This document shows, in pieces, positions 7,618-64,000 of a stretch of DNA of 64,000 nt. The notes under the pieces are model-generated. The model saw nothing but the letters and a program-made list of their open reading frames with translations. It searched no databases and was not told where the DNA came from. The stretch comes from Escherichia coli. Its GTDB lineage: Bacteria > Pseudomonadota > Gammaproteobacteria > Enterobacterales > Enterobacteriaceae. The stretch's first letter is position 1. Each line of letters begins with the position of its first letter. A program made the position numbers and the translations under genes. Location of the stretch: the NCBI RefSeq assembly GCF_044324875.1, contig NZ_CP172185.1. One strand, 5' to 3'.

Positions 7618-10149
7618 TTAATTACTACCAAACATATCCTTGATCCAACCGGCTACACCGTCGCTGTCTTTCTGCTCTTGCTGAGCAGGTTGCTGTTGCG
7701 GCTGTTGCTGCGGCTGAGAAGACTGATCAAACGGATTGCCTGACGGTTGCTGCTGCATCTCACTCTGCTGGCACAGCGATTGCGGATCGCTGGTCCAGAC
7801 CGGCAAGACACGCATACCACCGCTGCAAACAAAGTTACCGTCGTAGTCCACGCCCATATCTGCAATATCTTCTGGCGGAACAAGATTCAGCGGCGTTGGC
7901 GTCTGGTTAGCCAGATAACGCTGATAAATCGACATTGCCCCACTGGCACCATACAGTTTGGTCGGTTGGTTGTTATCACGGCCTACCCAGGTGATGGTCA
8001 CCGTGCTGCCGTCAATGCCCGCAAACCAGGTATCTACGTTATTGTTGGTAGTCCCTGTTTTCCCTGCCAGATGCAGGTTCGGGTATTTCGCCCCAAGCTG
8101 ACGACCCGTACCACGTTGTACCACCTGCTGCATGGTCCATAGTGTCAGATATGCCGCCTGCGCCGGAACCGCGCGTTCTGCCTGCGGGAAGCTCTGATAC
8201 AGCACCTTGCCATCTTCTGCGATGACTGAACGCAGCGCAGAAAGCGGTGCACGGTTACCACCGCTGGCGATGGTCTGGAATGCCTGCGCCACTTCGATTG
8301 GCGTTAAGTTCAACGCCCCCAGCAGCATTGCCGGAACCGGATGCAGCTGATCTTTCGGTACGCCCAGTTTAATCCAGGTCTCCGTAACCGCAGGCAGCCC
8401 CAGCGCCATCCCCAGATTCACCGTCGGCACGTTCATCGAACGGGTCAACGCATCCACCAGCATCACTCTGCCGCTTTCGCTATAACGACGGTCATCGTTC
8501 TGCGGTGACCAGACCTGGCCATTCGGCTGACGTAGCGCGATTGGCGCATCCGCAATCCACGTGTTCAGGCGATAGATTTTCGGCTGGCTTAAGGCCGTCA
8601 GATAAGTCGCTGGTTTTGCAAGAGAACCAATCGAACGACGCGCCTGCATCGCACGGTTGTAGCCCGCAAACTGCGGCTCAGAACCACCGACCATCGCACG
8701 AACTTCACCACTAAAGCGGTCGACGACCACAATCGCAGTTTCAAGATCGCTCAACTTACGCTGTTTCTTCAGTGCCGGAATGCCTTCCACGGCGGCTTTT
8801 TCTGCCGCGTCCTGGGCCACCGAGTCAAAGGTAGTGAAGATCTTCACGCCGGAGAGATCTTTTACCTTATCGCCCAGTTTTGCCTGCAGCTCCTGACGCA
8901 CCAGTTGCATAAAGGCTGGCTGAGGAGAGATCACCCCACCGCGCGGCTGAACACCCAGCGGACGTGCACTCAACATGTCATAGAGTTCTTGATCAATAAT
9001 CTGTTGCTGTTGCAGCAAACGTAGCACCAGGTTACGTCGCTCCAGCGCCAGTTTCGGGTTACGCCACGGGTTGTAGATGGACGCCCCTTTCACCATACCC
9101 ACCAACAGCGCCTGCTGATCGAGGCTCAATTCTTCTACCGGACGACCAAAGTAATACAAGCTCGCCAGCGGGAAGCCGCGGATTTCGTTGTCGCCGCTCT
9201 GACCGAGATACACCTCGTTCATATACAGCTCAAGAATACGGTCTTTACTGTAACGCGCGTCCATGATCAGCGCCATGTAAGCTTCGTTCGCTTTACGCCA
9301 GTAAGAGCGCTCGCTGGAGAGGAACAGGTTTTTCACCAGCTGTTGCGTCAGCGTACTCGCACCCTGCACCGTGCGTCCGGCTGTCAGGTTTGCCAGCACC
9401 GCACGCCCAATTGAGTAGAGGCTGATCCCATCATGCTCGTAGAAATGACGGTCTTCTGTCGCCAGCAAAGTATCCACCAACAAATCAGGGAAACCACTGC
9501 GCGGCACAAACAGACGCTGCTCACCGTTTGGTGAGGAGATCATAGTGATCAGGCGCGGATCAAGACGGAAGAAACCAAACTGACGGTTGTTCTCCATATT
9601 GACGATCGTCGCCAGATGATCGCCATCAAAGGTCAGACGCGCACGCACCTGCCCTTCTTTACTGTCCGGGAAATCAAACGGACGGCGGATCATCTCAATG
9701 CTGTTGGCCTGCACGGTAAATTCGCCAGGACGGGTCATTTTCGACACCTGACGATACTGGGTCGCCTCCAGCAGCTTCACCATCTCGTTCTTGCTGATGG
9801 TCATGTCTGGCTCAAGGTTGACCATCCGGCCATAAACTGCCGCGGGCAGTTGCCAGACCTTACCATCAATACGGCTGCGAATTTTTTGATCGAGATAAAC
9901 GCCGTAAATGGCGATCAGCACGGCAAAAACGATAGCCAGTTTTAGCAGCAGCCATAGCCAGCCGCGTTTGCCACGAGGCTTACGCCCTTTGCCTTTGCCC
10001 TTTCCTTTGCGCGGCATCGGTTCTTCATCCTCATAGTCATCATAATCGTCGTAATCGTCATCTTCGTAACGACGACGGCTTACCTTTTGTTTGACCGGAC
10101 GCGTCGGTTTCCCTTTGCGTCCAATTGGCTCGCGGTCATTCCCGGCCAT
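7618..10149 (-). CDS. mrcB: penicillin-binding protein 1B (bifunctional transglycosylase/transpeptidase)
   Basis: Start at [10 protein letters not shown] inside the 848-aa ORF; acidic [13 protein letters not shown] tract, TM anchor, SxxK STLTQQ and KTG motifs. Confidence 0.95.
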
Positions 10150-24511: not shown

Positions 24512-25306
24512 ATGAAACCAACCACTATTGCTTCATTGCAAAAATGCAAACAAGAAAAAAAACGTTTCGCGACCATCACCGCTTACGACTATAGCTTCGC
24601 AAAACTGTTTGCCGATGAAGGGCTTAACGTCATGCTGGTTGGCGATTCACTGGGCATGACGGTTCAGGGGCATGACTCCACTCTGCCAGTTACCGTTGCC
24701 GATATCGCCTACCACACTGCTGCTGTACGTCGCGGTGCGCCAAACTGTCTGCTGCTGGCTGATCTGCCGTTTATGGCGTATGCCACACCAGAACAAGCCT
24801 TTGAAAACGCCGCGACTGTCATGCGTGCCGGTGCCAACATGGTCAAAATTGAGGGCGGTGAGTGGCTGGTAGAAACCGTACAAATGCTGACCGAACGTGC
24901 CGTTCCGGTTTGTGGTCATTTAGGCCTAACCCCACAGTCAGTAAATATTTTCGGTGGCTACAAAGTCCAGGGGCGCGGCGATGAAGCGGCCGATCGACTG
25001 CTCAGCGATGCATTAGCTTTAGAAGCTGCTGGGGCACAACTGCTGGTACTGGAGTGCGTGCCGGTTGAACTGGCAAAACGTATTACCGAAGCACTGGCGA
25101 TCCCGGTTATTGGCATTGGCGCAGGCAACGTCACTGACGGGCAAATTCTCGTGATGCACGACGCATTCGGCATTACCGGCGGTCATATTCCTAAATTCGC
25201 CAAAAATTTCCTCGCCGAAACGGGCGACATCCGCGCGGCTGTGCGGCAGTATATGGCTGAAGTGGAGTCCGGCGTTTATCCGGGCGAAGAACACAGTTTC
25301 CATTAA
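24512..25306 (+). CDS. panB: 3-methyl-2-oxobutanoate hydroxymethyltransferase
   Basis: 264-aa ORF matching recalled PanB. Confidence 0.95.
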
Positions 25307-25317
25307 GGAGTGACGTT

Positions 25318-26169
25318 GTGTTAATTATCGAAACCCTGCCGCTGCTGCGTCAGCAAATCCGCCGCCTGCGTATGGAAGGTAAGCGCGTGGCGCTGGTGCC
25401 CACCATGGGTAACCTGCACGACGGCCATATGAAGCTGGTCGACGAAGCCAAAGCCCGCGCCGATGTGGTCGTCGTCAGTATTTTCGTTAACCCGATGCAG
25501 TTCGACCGCCCGGAAGATCTGGCACGTTATCCACGGACCTTGCAAGAGGACTGCGAAAAGCTGAACAAGCGCAAAGTGGATTTAGTTTTCGCCCCTTCGG
25601 TAAAAGAGATCTACCCGAACGGTACAGAAACCCACACCTATGTTGATGTTCCCGGTCTTTCTACCATGCTGGAAGGTGCCAGCCGTCCGGGACATTTTCG
25701 CGGCGTTTCGACTATCGTCAGCAAGCTGTTCAATCTGGTCCAGCCGGACATCGCCTGCTTCGGTGAAAAAGATTTTCAGCAACTGGCGCTGATCCGCAAA
25801 ATGGTTGCTGATATGGGCTTTGATATTGAGATTGTCGGTGTGCCAATTATGCGCGCCAAAGACGGTCTGGCGCTGAGTTCCCGTAACGGTTATCTGACGG
25901 CGGAACAACGCAAAATTGCGCCTGGTCTGTACAAGGTTTTAAGTTCGATTGCCGACAAATTGCAGGCTGGCGAACGGGATCTCGATGAAATTATTACTAT
26001 TGCCGGGCAAGAACTGAATGAAAAAGGCTTCCGCGCCGATGATATTCAGATTCGTGATGCCGACACCTTGCTGGAGGTCTCTGAAAACAGCAAACGTGCA
26101 GTGATTCTGGTAGCCGCCTGGCTTGGCGATGCCCGCCTGATCGACAACAAAATAGTCGAGCTGGTGTAA
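25318..26169 (+). CDS. panC: pantothenate synthetase
   Basis: 283 aa, GTG start, [37 protein letters not shown] (HIGH-type motif). Confidence 0.95.
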
Positions 26170-26250
26170 TATTTAACTGGCGCTACGGCTGATGGCGCCA
26201 GTTATTCATTGCCACGTCATCTGTAAGAAATTATTCATATCGTAGACAAC

Positions 26251-26466
26251 TTAGTTAGAGTTAATTAGCTTATCAACCTCTGTAAGAGATAAAGTTGCCA
26301 TCTCTGCAACGTCTTCCCGAGACATTCCTTTACTCAGAAGACGCTGGGCCAGCCTTACCTTCCGGAGTCCCTCTTTATATCCCTTCTGAAATCCCTTCTG
26401 AAATCCCTTCTCTTCAAACCACTGCGCCAACGTCTGCCTGGTTTCTCTCCGTGTCTTTATTTCCAT
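26251..26466 (-). CDS. stand-alone Rpn C-terminal-tail paralog (RpnS-like small protein)
   Basis: 71-aa ORF; LAQWFEE...QRLLSKGMSREDVAEMA...EVDKLI closely parallels the last 70 aa of the adjacent rpnC product; created by an 85-bp tandem duplication. Confidence 0.5.
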   Translation of the reverse strand: MEIKTRRETRQTLAQWFEEKGFQKGFQKGYKEGLRKVRLAQRLLSKGMSREDVAEMATLSLTEVDKLINSN

Positions 26467-26636
26467 ATATTCCCTTAATTATCTGGTCAGTTAACAATAA
26501 CAATTATCTGGCTATAACTGATAATGCAGATAACTTAGCTAATCAGCTTATCAACCTCAGCAAGGGGTAAATTTGCCATCTCTGCAACGTCTTCCCGAGA
26601 CATTCCTTTACTCAGAAGACGCTGGGCGAATTCCTG
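26265..26636. repeat. tandem duplication of the rpnC 3' end (two ~85-bp near-identical copies, period ~280 bp)
   Basis: Copies at about 26265-26349 and 26544-26636 share the run ttgccatctctgcaacgtcttcccgagacattcctttactcagaagacgctgggc. Confidence 0.85.
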
Positions 26637-27479
26637 ACTTACTTCCTGTGTTACTTCCTGTATTACCTCTTGTCTTACCTCTTGTCTTACCTCTTGTCTT
26701 ACCTCCTGTCTTCCTTCCTGTCTTCCCCTCTCTTCAAACCACTGCGCCAGCGTCATCATAGACTTCCCTCCCGTTTCCCTGTCTCTCAGCACACCATAAA
26801 ACAAATCCGCTTGTTCAGTATGACCGCGTTGCAGCATATAGTTTTGCATGGCAACTAACTGACTTCCGCTAGTGTACCCTTCGTCAATCAGCGTGACCAG
26901 TTGCTCCAGCAATAACATTAAGTCGCGCTGGCGAATATGTTTTTGCAGTAGTTCGAGAATCGCAATCCGCCGATGTTGCATGATTTCGTCATCCGGTGTG
27001 ATGGTGATATCCACCAGCGGGAAAGGGTTGTTGTAAACGCGTCGCGCCAGCTCCGGCGAGTAAAACATATCAAACCAACACATTGAGAGCGGATAAGGTG
27101 TGGCCTCGCCCTGATAAAACAGAATCGGCACCACCAGCGGCAGCTTATCGTGATCCGCCTCCAGATGCCGGTGCATGGCAGCAATAGAATAACGCATCAT
27201 GCGAAAGGCCATTTTCTTATCCGGCTTACTTTGGTGTTCAATCACCACATGCAAATAACCGGGATTACCCTGCATTTGTACGGAATAGAGTACGTCCGTG
27301 CTGTGCCCTTTCAGGCTTTCCTCAATAAAACTCCCCGACTCAAGATGCAGCGTGTCGAGGTCACACAGTTCGCGTAGCTCCGCTGGCAAATGGATATCCA
27401 GAAAGTCACGAGCCGTTTCCGCATGCATTAAAAATTGTTTAAATACCGCGTCATGCGGTGTGGTACTCGGTGCATCCAT
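26535..27479 (-). CDS. rpnC: recombination-promoting nuclease Rpn family (YhgA-like PD-(D/E)xK)
   Basis: 314-aa ORF at the K-12 yadD position between panC and panD; Rpn-family sequence with C-terminal repeat-containing tail. Confidence 0.8.
   Translation of the reverse strand: MDAPSTTPHDAVFKQFLMHAETARDFLDIHLPAELRELCDLDTLHLESGSFIEESLKGHSTDVLYSVQMQGNPGYLHVVIEHQSKPDKKMAFRMMRYSIAAMHRHLEADHDKLPLVVPILFYQGEATPYPLSMCWFDMFYSPELARRVYNNPFPLVDITITPDDEIMQHRRIAILELLQKHIRQRDLMLLLEQLVTLIDEGYTSGSQLVAMQNYMLQRGHTEQADLFYGVLRDRETGGKSMMTLAQWFEERGRQEGRQEVRQEVRQEVRQEVIQEVTQEVSQEFAQRLLSKGMSREDVAEMANLPLAEVDKLIS
26637..26726 (-). repeat. in-frame 12-bp tandem repeat tract within rpnC (RQEV units)
   Basis: About 7 units of tacctcttgtct and variants, encoding RQEVRQEVRQEV...; a second shorter tract (atcccttctgaa, KGFQ units) lies at 26379-26412 in the small ORF. 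Confidence 0.85.
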
Positions 27480-58468: not shown

Positions 58469-59571
58469 TGGTAATGGCTAACTTAGATAAAGACCTAGGT
58501 TTGAAGCAAGACGCTATAAGGTTTTGCTTGATAAATGGTTACTTGCCATTTTTAGAAGTTAACGTTGAAAACTATAGGGAACTTTCTGATACATCTACAA
58601 TTATAACAGATGTAGATGTTTTAGGGGTTGCTTTTGATATAACTGGAAAAACCAGAAAGATAATTTTCGATTGTAAAACCATTAAAAATACCAGCCCTAT
58701 TAATAGAGCGTTTTGGGCTTCCGGTGTTATGAATTTTTTAGGCTATGATGAAGCATTCATCATATTAAGAAAGAAAGCAAGTGAGGCCCATAGACTTTCC
58801 GCAAAAACAATTAATGTCCACCTTTTTGATGAAGATCAAATGAAAGGATATGCTCAATCATTTTCAATGAATTTCAATATTGATTTAAGCTACTCTACGG
58901 ACATTAATAATTGGATAAGTATACAGGAAGTATATAAAACAGATAAAACCATCCAAAAATATGGCGAATTTTTAGCAAGTTCGGTTCCTACAGAAAATGA
59001 TCCAGCGAAGAATTTGAGAAGATTTATTGCTGCTTTACAAAAAGTGAAGAATGAACTAGACCCTCAAAAAAATAAACACAGAGCAATTTACTTGCATAGT
59101 CTAATGACATTCTCATATATTATGGCATGCTTAGTGCAGCAACTAAGAGGGTTAATTGATTTTGATTATAATCAGAATGAATTCACAAGACTTCTCAAAT
59201 ATTATATCTGGGGAGGGAAGGATAGCTTTATATTAAGACATAAGATGAGAGAACTAATCTCATCTAATGACAGTTCGATTCAAAATATAGAGCCAGAGTT
59301 AAGGAATTGGGATGACTTTATTGAACTCACAAGGAGTCTACTTGACTCTCCTAATGATATAATTAAATGTTGCCATGTGTTACGTGAATTTAGTTTTTTA
59401 GAACTATCCATGCATGACATTAAAAAGGATGAGCAACTATCCACTCTAATTTCAGATAATTCAAGAATTCGTCAATTTATAATGATAATGGCTAGATACT
59501 TAACCAACTCGATGAAAATGCCAAAAGATTTCATTAACGATCTAGTATCAATATTTGATAGATTGAGATAA
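58468..59571 (+). CDS. hypothetical protein, island operon gene B; N-terminal PD-(D/E)xK-like motif
   Basis: 367-aa ORF; TAATG overlap with gene A (alternative ATG at 58474 has GGAG 8 nt upstream); residues 48-70 TDVDVLGVAF...KIIFDCKT fit hD...(D/E)xK. Confidence 0.75.
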   Translation: MVMANLDKDLGLKQDAIRFCLINGYLPFLEVNVENYRELSDTSTIITDVDVLGVAFDITGKTRKIIFDCKTIKNTSPINRAFWASGVMNFLGYDEAFIILRKKASEAHRLSAKTINVHLFDEDQMKGYAQSFSMNFNIDLSYSTDINNWISIQEVYKTDKTIQKYGEFLASSVPTENDPAKNLRRFIAALQKVKNELDPQKNKHRAIYLHSLMTFSYIMACLVQQLRGLIDFDYNQNEFTRLLKYYIWGGKDSFILRHKMRELISSNDSSIQNIEPELRNWDDFIELTRSLLDSPNDIIKCCHVLREFSFLELSMHDIKKDEQLSTLISDNSRIRQFIMIMARYLTNSMKMPKDFINDLVSIFDRLR

Positions 59572-59577
59572 AAAGAA

Positions 59578-59609
59578 GAGCAGGCTCGAATTAAATTTCG
59601 TGCCTGCTC
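59578..59609. terminator. hairpin between convergent gene B and the recombinase gene
   Basis: 13-bp stem gagcaggctcgaa / ttcgtgcctgctc (one mismatch), loop ttaaat; U-rich tail on the minus-strand transcript. Confidence 0.5.
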
Positions 59610-59708
59610 ACCATATAAACAAATGATAATAACTCATTCAACTAGATTATCTTTAATTCAGAGCAGTAATGATTTTCTTAATAACAATTCCCCTTTCTGA
59701 ATCCCATC

Positions 59709-60266
59709 TCAGGAGGCATTCATTTCTTTTTTCACGCGAAACACTGTAGCCCTGCCACAATCGCACAACTTTGCAATCTCATCCGGTGTGTTCTTCCCAG
59801 CTTGAAGCATCTCAATGATTTTACTGTGTAATTCTTTGTTCTTTTGCTTTCCTTTATACTTCTTAGCCTCTTTAGCAAGGGCAATTCCTTCGTTGCGACG
59901 TGATGCGATCATTCCCCGCTCAAATTCTGCAACGGCTCCCATCATGGTTAAGATTAAACGAGATTGTGGGGAGTTATCGAAACTCATTGAGTTAGCAAGG
60001 AACTGAACAGTGATCCCGCGAGCAACGAGGCTATCAATCATTTCCAGCAAATCGCGGGTATTACGTGCAAGGCGATCAATCGAGTGAGTCATGAGCGTAT
60101 CACCTTCGCGGAGGTGTGAAAGCAGGTTCAACAATTCAGGTCTCTCGCTGGTGGACTTACCTGATTCTTTCTCGGTGACGATTTTGTCACAAACAGGTTC
60201 CAGTACTGCCAACTGACGCTCAAGATTCTGATCCTTTGTTGAGACTCTCGCGTAACCAAAAATCAT
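59709..60266 (-). CDS. small serine recombinase (resolvase/invertase family)
   Basis: N-terminal catalytic motif FGYARVSTKDQ with serine nucleophile, C-terminal helix-turn-helix GRATVFRVKKE; start placed at MIFGYARV (ORF-track ATG at 60296 lies inside the dyad sites). Confidence 0.88.
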   Translation of the reverse strand: MIFGYARVSTKDQNLERQLAVLEPVCDKIVTEKESGKSTSERPELLNLLSHLREGDTLMTHSIDRLARNTRDLLEMIDSLVARGITVQFLANSMSFDNSPQSRLILTMMGAVAEFERGMIASRRNEGIALAKEAKKYKGKQKNKELHSKIIEMLQAGKNTPDEIAKLCDCGRATVFRVKKEMNAS

Positions 60267-60288
60267 TTCCCTGCCCTCACCGCTGATA

Positions 60289-60353
60289 AGTATCATTTAA
60301 ATTAACTGAATGATACAGTATCATTTAAATTCTTTCAATGTCTAAATGATACT
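60289..60353. promoter_or_regulatory. tandem dyad-symmetric sites upstream of the recombinase (res/hix-like)
   Basis: Two copies of agtatcatttaaatt (60289-60303, 60317-60331), each paired 11 bp downstream with an inverted half-site (aatgatac 60309-60316; taaatgatact 60343-60353). Confidence 0.6.
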
Positions 60354-60770
60354 AAACGAGACAAGAAAAACGGGTATCGTTAGGGAGTACCCAAAAGAGA
60401 TTTTTGATCGTGCGTTTTTTAGTCAATGTAGGGTTAGTGAAAAGTTCAGTACCGAGATCTGAGTTCACGGCATTTTGTCGACGGGGTTGAACCTGATTAG
60501 GCGAACGAGATTTTAAATCAGGCGGAATAAAACAAGTTGTACTTTTATCTGAGTAAACGATCCCTTTAACTTTTTAGTCAGAAATCGTGATACTAGGGGT
60601 TTGGTTATTTTGTGTCCTTAAGGCCAGTACTTTTAGCGAGGACGAAAAAACGGCCTACATGAGAACGCTTACAGTAACTTAAGTATATTATCCAAAAAGT
60701 CACTTAACTTAAATCAATTTGGATGCAAAATCGCCACACTTTGCAAGTGAACACATACCGGGCAACAAGC

Positions 60771-60796
60771 AAATAAAAAAGGCCACTTTCGCGACC
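60771..60796 (-). terminator. minus-strand intrinsic terminator after the 119-aa gene
   Basis: On the minus transcript GGUCGC-GAAA-GUGGCC (stem with two G-U wobbles) followed by UUUUUUUAUUU; the stem does not form on the plus transcript. Confidence 0.5.
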
Positions 60797-60814
60797 TTGT
60801 ACCAGTACAAACAC

Positions 60815-61174
60815 TCATTCAGAACGATCAAGTACCATATATGCTGGCTGACACATGCTGCCCCGCTCCTGTAGCCAGTAGTAATCAAGATCGGCAACAC
60901 GCACGTCCAATCCAGAATCTACACGGTTGATCTGTAACCGTAGCCCTACAGTATCCTTGTACGATAAACCAGATTTAACATTGTATTTGTACTTAACACC
61001 GTTTTCCTGTTCAAACTGTTTAAGGAAAGGCGTCATTTGTTTCTGAATTTCTTTCAAACAAATAACCTCATTATCAATAGCAAAGGGGGGTTCTGTTTTT
61101 CCATCAGGTACAGCAGCCTGTAAATGAAAGGAAGTACTCAACAATAACAGCATTGCAACAGAAGTCTTTTTCAT
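60815..61174 (-). CDS. hypothetical small secreted protein
   Basis: 119 aa; signal peptide MKKTSVAMLLLLSTSFHLQA then AVP; AAGGAA Shine-Dalgarno; 43 nt downstream of the membrane-protein gene. Confidence 0.7.
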   Translation of the reverse strand: MKKTSVAMLLLLSTSFHLQAAVPDGKTEPPFAIDNEVICLKEIQKQMTPFLKQFEQENGVKYKYNVKSGLSYKDTVGLRLQINRVDSGLDVRVADLDYYWLQERGSMCQPAYMVLDRSE

Positions 61175-61217
61175 TTTAATTCCTTATTAAAGAACAGTAC
61201 ATTATATTTCAATGGAC

Positions 61218-62258
61218 TTAATAACAATATTTTATATTTCCTTCGGGTTTTCTCATGCATTTAATTCCTTCAGGAATATAATCAGTTACGGGAGCAGGTC
61301 TGGCATCAGGTCTTGAAAGACGATTGGATATAGAAGACAACAGACTGAAAACACACTCATTAAATGATTTTTGATATTTATTTTTTTCATAAAAGTACTG
61401 CATGGTGATTTTATCTCTTTCGTATTGCAATTCTTTGCCAAGCTGAATCCTATCCATATCAATTCCATTTCTCATAGCATTAAATCTTTCGTTCAATAAA
61501 TTAAATTGAGATTTATTCCATTCATTTAAAGGAAATAAAGAATTGTTAAGCCTTTGCCTACAATTAGATTGCTCGATAGCTGACATGTATTCTTTCATAC
61601 TAACGCCAATATCTAAGTATGTGAGTTGTCCAGCAGTTCTATCAACTGAGTTATTAGGGTAAGATTTAATTTCAGTAAGTATTGACTCTGTTAATACTGC
61701 ATTTTCTTCTAAATCTTTGCTAATAGTTATTTGAGCTTGTTCTCTTTTATCCTTATCAAATATTGAAATGTATTTCTTTACTATATCCTGATTAGCTTTC
61801 TCGGCTGCTACTAACGCATCTTGAACCTTCTTTTCCGCCGCTTTAACTCGTTGTTCTTCTACAAATTTCGCGTAGTCATCAGTATTTGTAATGTGATTTT
61901 CACGAGCGATAGAAAACTCTTTACTATCTTTAAAACCAAGTTTTTGTGCTCTGGCTCCATCGCTTGAAGATCGGGCAGAACTTGCCACGAAAGCGAGCAC
62001 AATGATCAGTACAGGAACCGTATAATTATTAACGAGTTTATAGGGTAAGAACTTCGCTTTAAGCGTACCATAACCCAAAACAGCCCAGCCTATCGCGGCA
62101 GTACTTGCCAGTAGCTGGCACAATCCAGCGACGGAAAGCATGATTACCGACCAGAAGCCTGTACCGACTGCGAAAAGATCACCAAATTTCTCCATTGACG
62201 CAAGGAATAAAAACACTCCCCAAATGCCATAAAATCCTATTTTCAAATATTTACTCAC
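61218..62258 (-). CDS. hypothetical membrane protein with coiled-coil-like soluble domain
   Basis: 346 aa, probable GTG start after AGGA; three hydrophobic segments in the first ~95 residues, then a charged Lys/Glu-rich region. Confidence 0.7.
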   Translation of the reverse strand: MSKYLKIGFYGIWGVFLFLASMEKFGDLFAVGTGFWSVIMLSVAGLCQLLASTAAIGWAVLGYGTLKAKFLPYKLVNNYTVPVLIIVLAFVASSARSSSDGARAQKLGFKDSKEFSIARENHITNTDDYAKFVEEQRVKAAEKKVQDALVAAEKANQDIVKKYISIFDKDKREQAQITISKDLEENAVLTESILTEIKSYPNNSVDRTAGQLTYLDIGVSMKEYMSAIEQSNCRQRLNNSLFPLNEWNKSQFNLLNERFNAMRNGIDMDRIQLGKELQYERDKITMQYFYEKNKYQKSFNECVFSLLSSISNRLSRPDARPAPVTDYIPEGIKCMRKPEGNIKYCY

Positions 62259-62479
62259 CGCAATTATCCTTTAATAATTTTCCAAATCGATGGTTCGTTC
62301 TATTTGTATTATCGACAATAATTCGTTTGCCTTTAGGTAGATCCCTTAAAAAGGAATCCCCCCAAAATTTATAGATTAGCAGTTGTACCACTCTCACTGT
62401 TTTGTCACTCCCATTATCTTCTCTCAGGTCAAAAGTACGGACTTAAAGCCGTCCGTGTTCAGGTGCTCAAGAGTAGCAC

Positions 62480-62590
62480 GCATATCAATAAATGATCGAT
62501 AAAAACGATCAATTAATGGATTATTGATTGCTATAATCGATCAATTACTATTAATTCAATACAAATCAATAGGTAAAATCGATCAAGAGG
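62480..62590. repeat. iteron-like direct repeats, GATC-rich
   Basis: Three copies of a-atcgatcaa at 62503-62513, 62535-62545, 62577-62587 and two longer atcaata...atcgat units; several GATC sites. Confidence 0.6.
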
Positions 62591-62754
62591 ATTCGTCATC
62601 CATGAAAGGGGTTATGTATCTGATTTCAATACAGGGAGTATTAGCGATACCATCACGCAAACGCTCTTAAAGCGTAGCTACGGCGTTTTGTAGGGTTTTG
62701 GTCATTCATGTGTGTCAGTAATGAACATCGCATTCAGGGGCTTCCTGTGCGTTT

Positions 62755-63241
62755 TGTCCGAAACACCATCATGAAGGGGGACAGATCGGATCGGGGTCGC
62801 TTCGCTCTGGTCAGTACTGGATAGTTCTTTTCCAGTAACTGAAACCGCAGATCCCCCACTAAGTACACAAAGGAATCAGTAGTATAATAAGTAATTAAAT
62901 AGCAATCAGTTATGTACTGAATGACAGAACAGAAAAACGCGATTGGTTCGCTCTGCCAGTGACTGAAAGGAACGAAGCAGTAGAACCTAATCCAGCGAAC
63001 AGTACACGCAAAGCGGGTACTGTTTAATTGTTTTATCTATGTAAACAATGGGATAGCTATCAAGTACTCACTGCGTGAGCACTCTCACTAACTACCCGAA
63101 ACAGTTCGCTTGCTTCGCCGCTCCTACTTTCAGGTAGTTAATTCGCTTTCGCTCGTTGTGATGTCCGAAATTTATTACCTATAGTATTATAAGGTATTAT
63201 TTTCCGGACATTTATGTATTTTTATGATGGTGTTCTGGACA
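62755..63241. repeat. 18-bp imperfect inverted repeat pair flanking ~450 bp of motif-rich non-coding DNA
   Basis: tgtccgaaacaccatcat (62755-62772) against the reverse complement of atgatggtgttctggaca (63224-63241), 16 of 18 matching; interior holds CAGT-N-ACTG palindromes and ttcgctctg repeats. Confidence 0.6.
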
Positions 63242-64000
63242 TCATTTTTTGCTTTTTTGTACTTCCTTTTCGTATTTGTTCCACATAGCCTTTTGCTCTT
63301 CGGGACTGAGTGCTGTATTACCACTGGCAAGAAACACCTTGAACGCTTCTAACTCAAGCCCTGGGTTGTGGCTTTTCCAGCGGCGAAAACGCTTAGCGTG
63401 ATTATCATCAAGAGTGAAACGCTTTTGCTTATTCTTTGAACCTTGCGGCCTGCCTCTCGACCTCTGCTCATCATCAATACCGATATCTATATACTCAATA
63501 TTATCTGTAAGAGATCTGGCTTGCCATTCATCAAAAACATAAACAGTCTGTGTTTCAGTACTGTCAAAATCCCTTGAAATTCCTCGTAGTACGAACTGGT
63601 GTAAACTTTCGTACTCCCTCGCAACATGTATCGCCTCGCCGTCAATCTCAAAGAACAATTCGCACTGTTTAGCCTCTGTTTCAGAGGGACGCATACAAGC
63701 GAGCCAGACGCACGTGAGCAAGTGTTGGTACTGGTTAAATCCTCTGGCATCCGGGCTTATCTCTGTGCCGTTCCTTAGGCTCTGAGAATCGCTTTTGTTC
63801 TTCGTCCAGTAGAAATCCTGCCCCTCAAGTTTCTCATCAATAAATGAGTATATTTTTTGTACTTTATCAGGGTTGTTAGTCTTCCATGTCTTTGATAGTT
63901 TGTTGTTTTTTGAGAAGTAATAAACTTTTAATCTGTTTTTGAGTTCAGTTTTTCGTGTCAGTAATCCTTCAAGTTCAGTACTTTCAAAGAGTTCTTTATT
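63242..64000 (-). CDS. hypothetical protein, 5'-truncated by the window end
   Basis: My translation finds the frame of the 159-aa track ORF open for all 93 upstream codons to position 64000 (at least 252 aa); C-terminus has AT-hook-like RGRPQGSKNK. Confidence 0.6.
   Translation of the reverse strand, partial: NKELFESTELEGLLTRKTELKNRLKVYYFSKNNKLSKTWKTNNPDKVQKIYSFIDEKLEGQDFYWTKNKSDSQSLRNGTEISPDARGFNQYQHLLTCVWLACMRPSETEAKQCELFFEIDGEAIHVAREYESLHQFVLRGISRDFDSTETQTVYVFDEWQARSLTDNIEYIDIGIDDEQRSRGRPQGSKNKQKRFTLDDNHAKRFRRWKSHNPGLELEAFKVFLASGNTALSPEEQKAMWNKYEKEVQKSKK

Follow-up and report, generated by a model that had tools for sequence, protein, structure and literature searches.

A probable three-subsite res site, with a Sin-type crossover sequence, upstream of a small serine recombinase gene in an Escherichia coli island

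Two res sites are the closest described relatives of the site analysed here. The gamma-delta res site is 114 bp long and takes up three dimers (PMC2428073, PMC9943657). The Sin res site (resH) of Staphylococcus aureus plasmids is 86 bp long, with one direct-repeat accessory site and a spacer bent by HU/IHF (PMC2428073, PMC2764113), and a family of Sin-like res sites has been described (Rowland et al., 2002, as cited in PMC2428073). In the Tn3 family, the idea of a "portable RES module" has been put forward (PMC4337579, PMC4133298). Small resolvase-like genes also occur together with an integrase in the integrative elements called pipolins, where a role with circular or replicating forms was proposed (PMC11551731), and small serine recombinases have recently been found to mark defence systems, for a reason that was left open (Andersen et al., 2025, preprint; PMC12632615).

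We analysed a 64,000-nucleotide stretch of E. coli DNA (the window) that contains a small serine recombinase gene. The object is ordinary in kind, being probably a resolvase with its own res. Our reading, which we consider likely, is that the 114 bp before the gene are the three-subsite res site of an active small serine resolvase, in which dyads A and B would serve as accessory subsites and operator and dyad C would be the crossover subsite.

The recombinase gene and its island

The gene is part of a ≈9.6-kb island that interrupts ppdD. The 5′ ppdD stub is at the left end of the island (56764-56847); past the end of the window (L001, positions 25294-27302), a 520-aa large serine recombinase is followed by the rest of ppdD. 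Besides the features listed below, the island holds genes of 119 aa and 346 aa and a helicase-like gene.

57182-58468 and 58468-59571, plus strand: two unannotated genes of 428 and 367 aa (open reading frames)
59709-60266, minus strand: small serine recombinase of the resolvase type, 185 aa (Pfam, alignment, dN/dS and RefSeq)
60267-60288, minus strand: leader with a ribosome-binding site, GAGGG...AGGGAA ahead of the ATG (sequence inspection; GTGAGGGCA is kept in the alignment)

The mechanical open reading frame of the recombinase runs from 59709 to 60296 on the minus strand (195 aa), and this longer reading would open within the first upstream dyad. The true start is the conserved ATG at 60266 (MIFGYARVSTKDQ), which gives 185 aa; the RefSeq entry (WP_031314521.1) has the identical start, and homologues align from this position. 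The original prediction pointed to the resolvase/invertase motif GYARVSTKDQ and a C-terminal helix-turn-helix, and Pfam confirmed both. The catalytic domain matches PF00239 (Resolvase; 1.4e-36), and residues 149-184 match HTH_7 (1e-3) and HTH_29; this helix-turn-helix and the length of the protein fit the small serine recombinase family (about 180-200 aa). Gamma-delta resolvase (2.5e-25) and Sin (2r0q; 1e-24) both align over the entire protein. The catalytic set is present, with the nucleophile Ser9 and Arg7 in GYARVS, Asp/Arg/Arg in SIDRLARN, and an EFER motif, and the alignment contains equivalents of gamma-delta R8, S10, D67, R68, and R71 and of the E-helix ER motif. Motif evidence of an inactive recombinase, which the original prediction had named as an observation that would count against it, was thus not found.

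Relative to sister islands, the recombinase gene has a dN/dS of 0.02-0.06 at a dS of 0.57-0.94, and the helix-turn-helix segment PDEIAKLCDCGRATVFRVKK is unchanged in all compared sequences except one, which has one substitution (L019). By these sequence measures, the protein is an intact small serine recombinase under strong purifying selection, which together with the intact catalytic residues implies a functional gene rather than a relic. The C-terminal tail of the protein has been replaced in the present island: the 185-aa protein ends in KKEMNAS, and the 191-aa proteins of sister islands end in KKEMLASTGSIEN. Homology to the sister islands starts at 59715-59721, within the last codons of the recombinase (tail region 59709-59721), and ≈75 nt that are conserved past the stop codon in other islands are missing here.

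A megablast search of 5,426 complete E. coli genomes found the recombinase with its upstream region in 41, at a single place in each. Relatives that share 70-97% protein identity come from Aeromonas, Serratia, Rahnella, Edaphovirga, Providencia, and Mangrovibacter, among others. The res pattern had no match in IMG/VR viral contigs, and tblastn against phages and plasmids returned no relative above 57% identity; the family is not obviously phage- or plasmid-borne, judging from these searches.

Sister islands share a common backbone and have different integrases and insertion sites. The types comprise a large serine recombinase in ppdD (the present island), a tyrosine integrase at rcnR/thiM, a large serine recombinase at yggR/yggS, and a further type inserted at ybhA. 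The island contains no transposase; the neighbours of the gene are a large serine or tyrosine integrase, the helicase-like gene, and cargo. In sister islands, TIR plus NACHT or Hachiman genes lie beyond the 3′ end of the recombinase gene, and an AAA ATPase pair, a nuclease plus ATPase, a STAND ATPase, SMODS/SLATT, a SLATT protein, or PDC-S52 lie beyond site C. In the present and thiM-type islands, the cargo side is past the 3′ end of the gene and not beyond site C.

Several other features of the island were noted. The genes at 57182-58468 and 58468-59571 fill the slot that is occupied in sister islands by TIR plus NACHT, Hachiman, or a KAP NTPase, and are a candidate two-gene defence system; Pfam, PADLOC, PHROGs, and NCBIfam returned no match for the 428-aa and 367-aa cargo proteins and assigned no function to these or to two small backbone proteins. 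Between the 346-aa gene and the helicase-like gene are ≈980 bp that are free of genes (62259-63241), with a gap of similar length in sister islands and three iteron-like copies of AT.G.TAAAA.CGATCAA at 62495-62586; this region may be a replication origin or an operator. The ≈400 bp that separate site C from the 119-aa gene (60403-60814) are non-coding, are conserved in islands that share this flank (e.g., TTTTCACTAACCC), and include a terminator-like hairpin at 60798-60779. An Rfam scan of 56500-64000 detected no credible RNA family, the sole match being an L20_leader far below threshold.

Three dyads and a predicted promoter upstream of the gene

The region directly upstream of the leader contains the following features.

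60289-60317, no strand assigned: site A, proposed accessory subsite III (inverted half-sites GTATCATT/AATGATAC; holds the -10 hexamer)
60310-60338, minus strand: predicted sigma-70-type promoter of the recombinase gene (10 of 12 matches; inside sites B and A)
60317-60353, no strand assigned: site B, proposed accessory subsite II (inverted half-sites AGTATCATTTA/TAAATGATACT; -35 hexamer in its long spacer)
60353-60362, minus strand: extra half-site-like motif GTCTCGTTTA (direct repeat with the distal half-site of site B)
60373-60402, no strand assigned: site C, proposed crossover subsite I (conservation, homology to Sin site I, flank junction)

In site A, GTATCATT (60290-60297) and AATGATAC (60309-60316) are separated by 11 nt, which gives 27 bp between the outer G residues and 29 bp with the outer bases. 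In site B, AGTATCATTTA (60317-60327) and TAAATGATACT (60343-60353) are separated by 15 nt, which gives 35 bp between the outer G residues and 37 bp with the outer bases. The original prediction of two upstream dyads built from one half-site holds for the dyads and the shared AGTATCATTTA, but not for its equal 11-bp spacers. The 64-kb window contains five copies of GTATCATT, compared to 1.9 expected, and four of the five fall within 63 bp.

Site C was missed in the original prediction. On the coding strand it reads AATCTCTTTTGGGTACTCCCTAACGATACC, and it forms a dyad 20 bp upstream of site B. Its half-sites are degenerate forms of the motif in sites A and B, with ≈6-7 of 10 positions matching the consensus, and it has an even length of 28 bp from one outer position to the other (30 bp with the outer bases), with a central TA at 60388-60389. 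Site C is conserved in sister islands and in plasmid homologues of 51-57% protein identity. We read the sequence of the Sin res site from staphylococcal plasmid records (locus L093), where crossover site I is TGTGAAATTTGGGTACACCCTAATCATACA. Site C shares 19 of 30 positions with Sin site I, and its core, TTTGGGTACTCCCTAA (TTTGGGTAC.CCCTAA), matches Sin site I at 15 of 16; this is the sole such match in the window, where 0.01 was expected. A full-text literature search for the core TTTGGGTAC returned unrelated papers only. These properties make site C the probable crossover site and dyads A and B most likely accessory subsites. The combination of a crossover site and accessory sites that was originally proposed is therefore upheld as an architecture, but with both dyads then seen assigned to the accessory part and the crossover assigned to 60373-60402. 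The overlap dinucleotide may be AC, the symmetry centre of site C, or TA, to which the mosaic junction described below points; the two are one base apart.

Together, the three sites span 60289-60402 (114 bp) and end 23 nt from the ATG. By the gamma-delta convention, the layout is 30 bp, a 19-bp spacer, 37 bp, a 1-bp overlap, and 29 bp, with centre-to-centre distances of 52.5 and 32 bp. The gamma-delta res site, when read directly in the same way, is 28-22-34-5-25 (114 bp), with centre-to-centre distances of 53 and 34.5 bp and with tnpR adjoining site III.

The three-site geometry is kept in more than 40 loci of several genera (more than 20 found through the protein and 25 by pattern). In every locus of 75-100% protein identity that keeps both dyads A and B, the four strong half-sites are spaced by 27 bp, 1 nt, and 35 bp, and identical spacing occurs in E. 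coli islands with three different integrases and in Aeromonas, Serratia, Rahnella, Edaphovirga, and Providencia loci. Plasmid homologues (51-57% identity) have three dyads of 28, 37/38, and 27 bp in unchanged order. In a set of ten loci with heavy synonymous divergence in their coding sequences, the rate of non-consensus bases was 0.6% in the half-sites of site A compared to 12.7% in its spacer, 1.9% in the half-sites of site B compared to 10.5% in its spacer, and 22% between the sites. Fixed spacing, combined with half-sites that vary far less than spacers, is a signature of protein-binding sites.

The predicted promoter has its -35 hexamer (TTGAAA, 60338-60333) in the spacer of site B and, 17 nt away, its -10 hexamer (TATCAT, 60315-60310) within one of the half-sites of site A. 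Across related loci, TATCAT does not vary, and the TTGA in the spacer of site B is conserved. From this strong sigma-70 match we infer that the promoter drives the recombinase gene, and its location inside sites B and A implies that binding of the recombinase there would repress its own gene.

The extra motif GTCTCGTTTA is kept in most loci, and the three-site model leaves it unexplained. Three genomes (L011, L025, and L026) lack exactly site A ahead of the recombinase start (position 8001); the loss of one 28-bp unit between direct repeats AAATGATACT has left only sites C and B. Site A may be dispensable, as these three genomes are without it.

Flank junctions, partner-site searches and proposed function

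We added 30 metagenomic loci through a pattern taken from the proximal part of the res site, and compared pairs in which the proximal 90 nt were at least 90% identical and the distal flanks were unrelated (48 pairs); only unrelated flanks were counted as junction evidence. The maximum-likelihood change-point fell between -15 and 0 of the central TA of site C in 46 of 48 pairs, and in none was it further out. In 30 of the 48 pairs the change-point was at the outer edge of site C (-10 to -15), with many at ≈-11. These breaks at ≈-11 cannot be placed more finely because the distal half-site TCTCTTTTGGG is similar in all lineages, and the outer-edge change-points would fit a central crossover only if selection keeps the distal half-site similar. 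Where distal half-sites are informative (L005 compared to L013; L018, L020, and L021), the break is at -2 to 0 and the proximal half is 100% identical. Moreover, one unrelated flank, termed beta (L098, L101, and L117), is ≈98% identical between loci of two proximal types that are more than 10% diverged, and the switch to this flank occurs right after TA. Variants of the distal half-site follow the distal flank and not the gene, and the same distal flank is found with diverged proximal types, as is the reverse. Past recombination at the centre of site C would best explain these junctions, which fall short of proof.

The common flank type termed alpha also occurs with two proximal types; this apparent recombination was not counted as evidence, since alpha flanks differ by 10-15% and joint divergence explains the pattern. 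In the S. aureus plasmid NC_022126.1 (L091, positions 440-620), other sequence takes the place of the left half of Sin site I, with another recombinase gene immediately upstream, and the site looks like a hybrid formed by recombination or insertion at the centre of site I. In the present island, a partial repeat (70% identical) of a stretch over the distal half of site C (60385-60414) is located at 60495-60524; it could be a chance match or a vestigial half-site.

We searched for a partner site at which the enzyme could act. Exact and degenerate half-site scans of the window and seven islands returned only chance singletons, and no second copy of site C was present in 14 loci (up to 8 mismatches in 25 nt). 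A second site was absent from the window, as originally stated, and equally from the rest of the island (L001), 12 sister loci, and the genome; the search of the full island for a second dyad copy, which had been suggested at the outset, thus found none. By the same result, we rejected a cassette bounded by a pair of sites. In six genomes that carry this island, the match across the site is colinear and unbroken. The absence of a second site and the colinearity of these genomes imply that there is no invertible or excisable segment in the integrated state. The original suggestion that the enzyme may resolve or invert part of the island is accordingly unsupported in that state, given a single site and six colinear genomes. 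As each genome has a single res, the integrated island offers the enzyme no substrate for rearrangement. A site without a partner is instead what is expected if a resolvase acts on the same res of a duplicated copy, and so fits a resolvase and not an invertase.

By the mechanism that we propose, two subunits would cleave the central GTAC of site C and exchange strands there, and further dimers would bind at sites B and A to form a synaptic complex. As in Tn3/gamma-delta and Sin, this complex would permit recombination only between directly repeated res copies on one supercoiled molecule, and binding of dimers at sites B and A would also repress the promoter. The likely job of the enzyme would be to resolve dimers or cointegrates of the excised circular island. 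Binding, cleavage position, autorepression, and the substrate (island multimers) are all deduced here from sequence, and the iteron-like repeats and the helicase-like gene give only hints of island replication or multimers after excision.

Two other readings bear on whether the enzyme recombines its site in this way. A Hin/Gin-type DNA invertase, with the dyads as hix-like sites of an invertible switch, is suggested by names, in that PHROGs and JGI call relatives "DNA invertase" and NCBIfam returns a weak match to the Mpi invertase family (68 bits compared to a cut-off of 272). However, an inverted partner is absent from everything searched (window, island, genome, and 12 related loci), no alternative orientation appears among the six colinear genomes, and three subsites with unequal spacers adjoining the gene are a feature of resolvases, as is a site C core that matches the crossover site of Sin. 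We regard an invertase as very improbable, and of the two architectures originally offered, res or hix/gix, the former is supported and the latter is not. It could also be that the protein is now an autorepressor only, recombination having been lost in a domesticated or relic resolvase module whose dyads are an operator. The promoter hexamers inside sites B and A, the single copy of the site per genome, and the loss of site A in three genomes are all compatible with this idea. Yet a repressor would not need the catalytic residues, all of which are kept by strong purifying selection in different genera; site C, conserved and outside the promoter, retains a known crossover core; and unrelated flanks join within it. 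We therefore consider pure autorepression quite unlikely.

The flank junctions raise the alternative that the selected function of the recombinase and site C is the capture or exchange of defence cargo and not the resolution of multimers. In E. coli and in other genera, loci with 90-100% identity over res and gene have unrelated DNA beyond site C; this distal DNA often encodes defence functions (STAND ATPase, nuclease plus ATPase, SLATT, and PDC-S52), and one distal flank type is joined to two diverged proximal types. The linkage of small serine recombinases to defence genes, moreover, has no known reason (2025 preprint, PMC12632615). By contrast, res-type synaptic complexes disfavour recombination between separate molecules (PMC9943657), no cargo is flanked by a second site, cargo lies past the 3′ end of the gene in the window and in thiM-type islands, and an ordinary resolvase may, on rare occasions, exchange DNA at res simply as a side effect. 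Cargo exchange as the selected function is thus unlikely in our view. That site C has served as a point at which cargo is swapped between islands, and that res exchange among co-resident elements would account for the linkage of recombinases to defence genes, is a separate proposal that we hold to be doubtful. The resolution of island multimers at a three-subsite res remains our preferred reading.

Relation to known resolution systems

For a widespread, uncharacterised family of small serine recombinases in Enterobacterales and Aeromonas, this analysis provides a putative recombination site. The islands in which these recombinases adjoin variable anti-phage genes use at least three different integrases. 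With a defined site of 114 bp, and with unrelated flanks joined inside its proposed crossover subsite, the question of defence linkage raised in the 2025 preprint becomes experimentally approachable, and the hybrid Sin/gamma-delta architecture is a natural test case for the evolution of synaptic complexes.

Two systems resemble the present one in their genetic setting. As in the recombinase-associated defence work (RADS; PMC12632615), the mobile islands here combine a small serine recombinase with adjoining defence cargo that varies; unlike in that work, where the gene served as a marker and no recombination site was given, the site is delimited here and a junction is seen within it. As in pipolins, an integrative element carries an integrase and a separate small resolvase-like gene; in contrast to pipolins, there is no piPolB, and the backbone consists of a helicase-like gene and two small genes, with defence cargo.

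The protein and the overall plan of the site are similar to those of Tn3/gamma-delta. The proteins of 183-185 aa align over their full length, the gene is directly preceded by three inverted dyads with unequal spacers, of which the probable crossover site is the most distal, the total is 114 bp with the centres of sites I and II ≈53 bp apart, and the promoter is within res. The details differ from gamma-delta. The half-site is AGTATCATTTA here compared to TGTCYNNTA, the sites are 30/37/29 bp long compared to 28/34/25 bp, sites A and B abut without a spacer and have odd lengths, and the centre of site I contains G+C (GGGTAC) where that of gamma-delta has A+T only. The host is also different, being an integrase-borne island without a transposase in contrast to the replicative transposon of Tn3/gamma-delta.

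Sin is similar in other respects. The N-terminal domains are very similar (GYARVS..DQNLERQL...TEK.SGKS..RP), the half-sites are related (TGTATGATTAGGG in Sin compared to AGTATCATTTAGA or AGTATCGTTAGGG here), and site I of Sin is homologous to site C. By contrast, the present locus has two accessory sites that are inverted dyads where Sin has one direct-repeat site, a 114-bp res with a spacer of 19-21 bp between sites I and II compared to 86 bp and ≈31 bp in Sin (L093), and a Gram-negative host with a chromosomal island as carrier compared to a plasmid. The res site upstream of this recombinase gene thus appears to combine a Sin-type crossover sequence with a gamma-delta-like geometry of three dimers.
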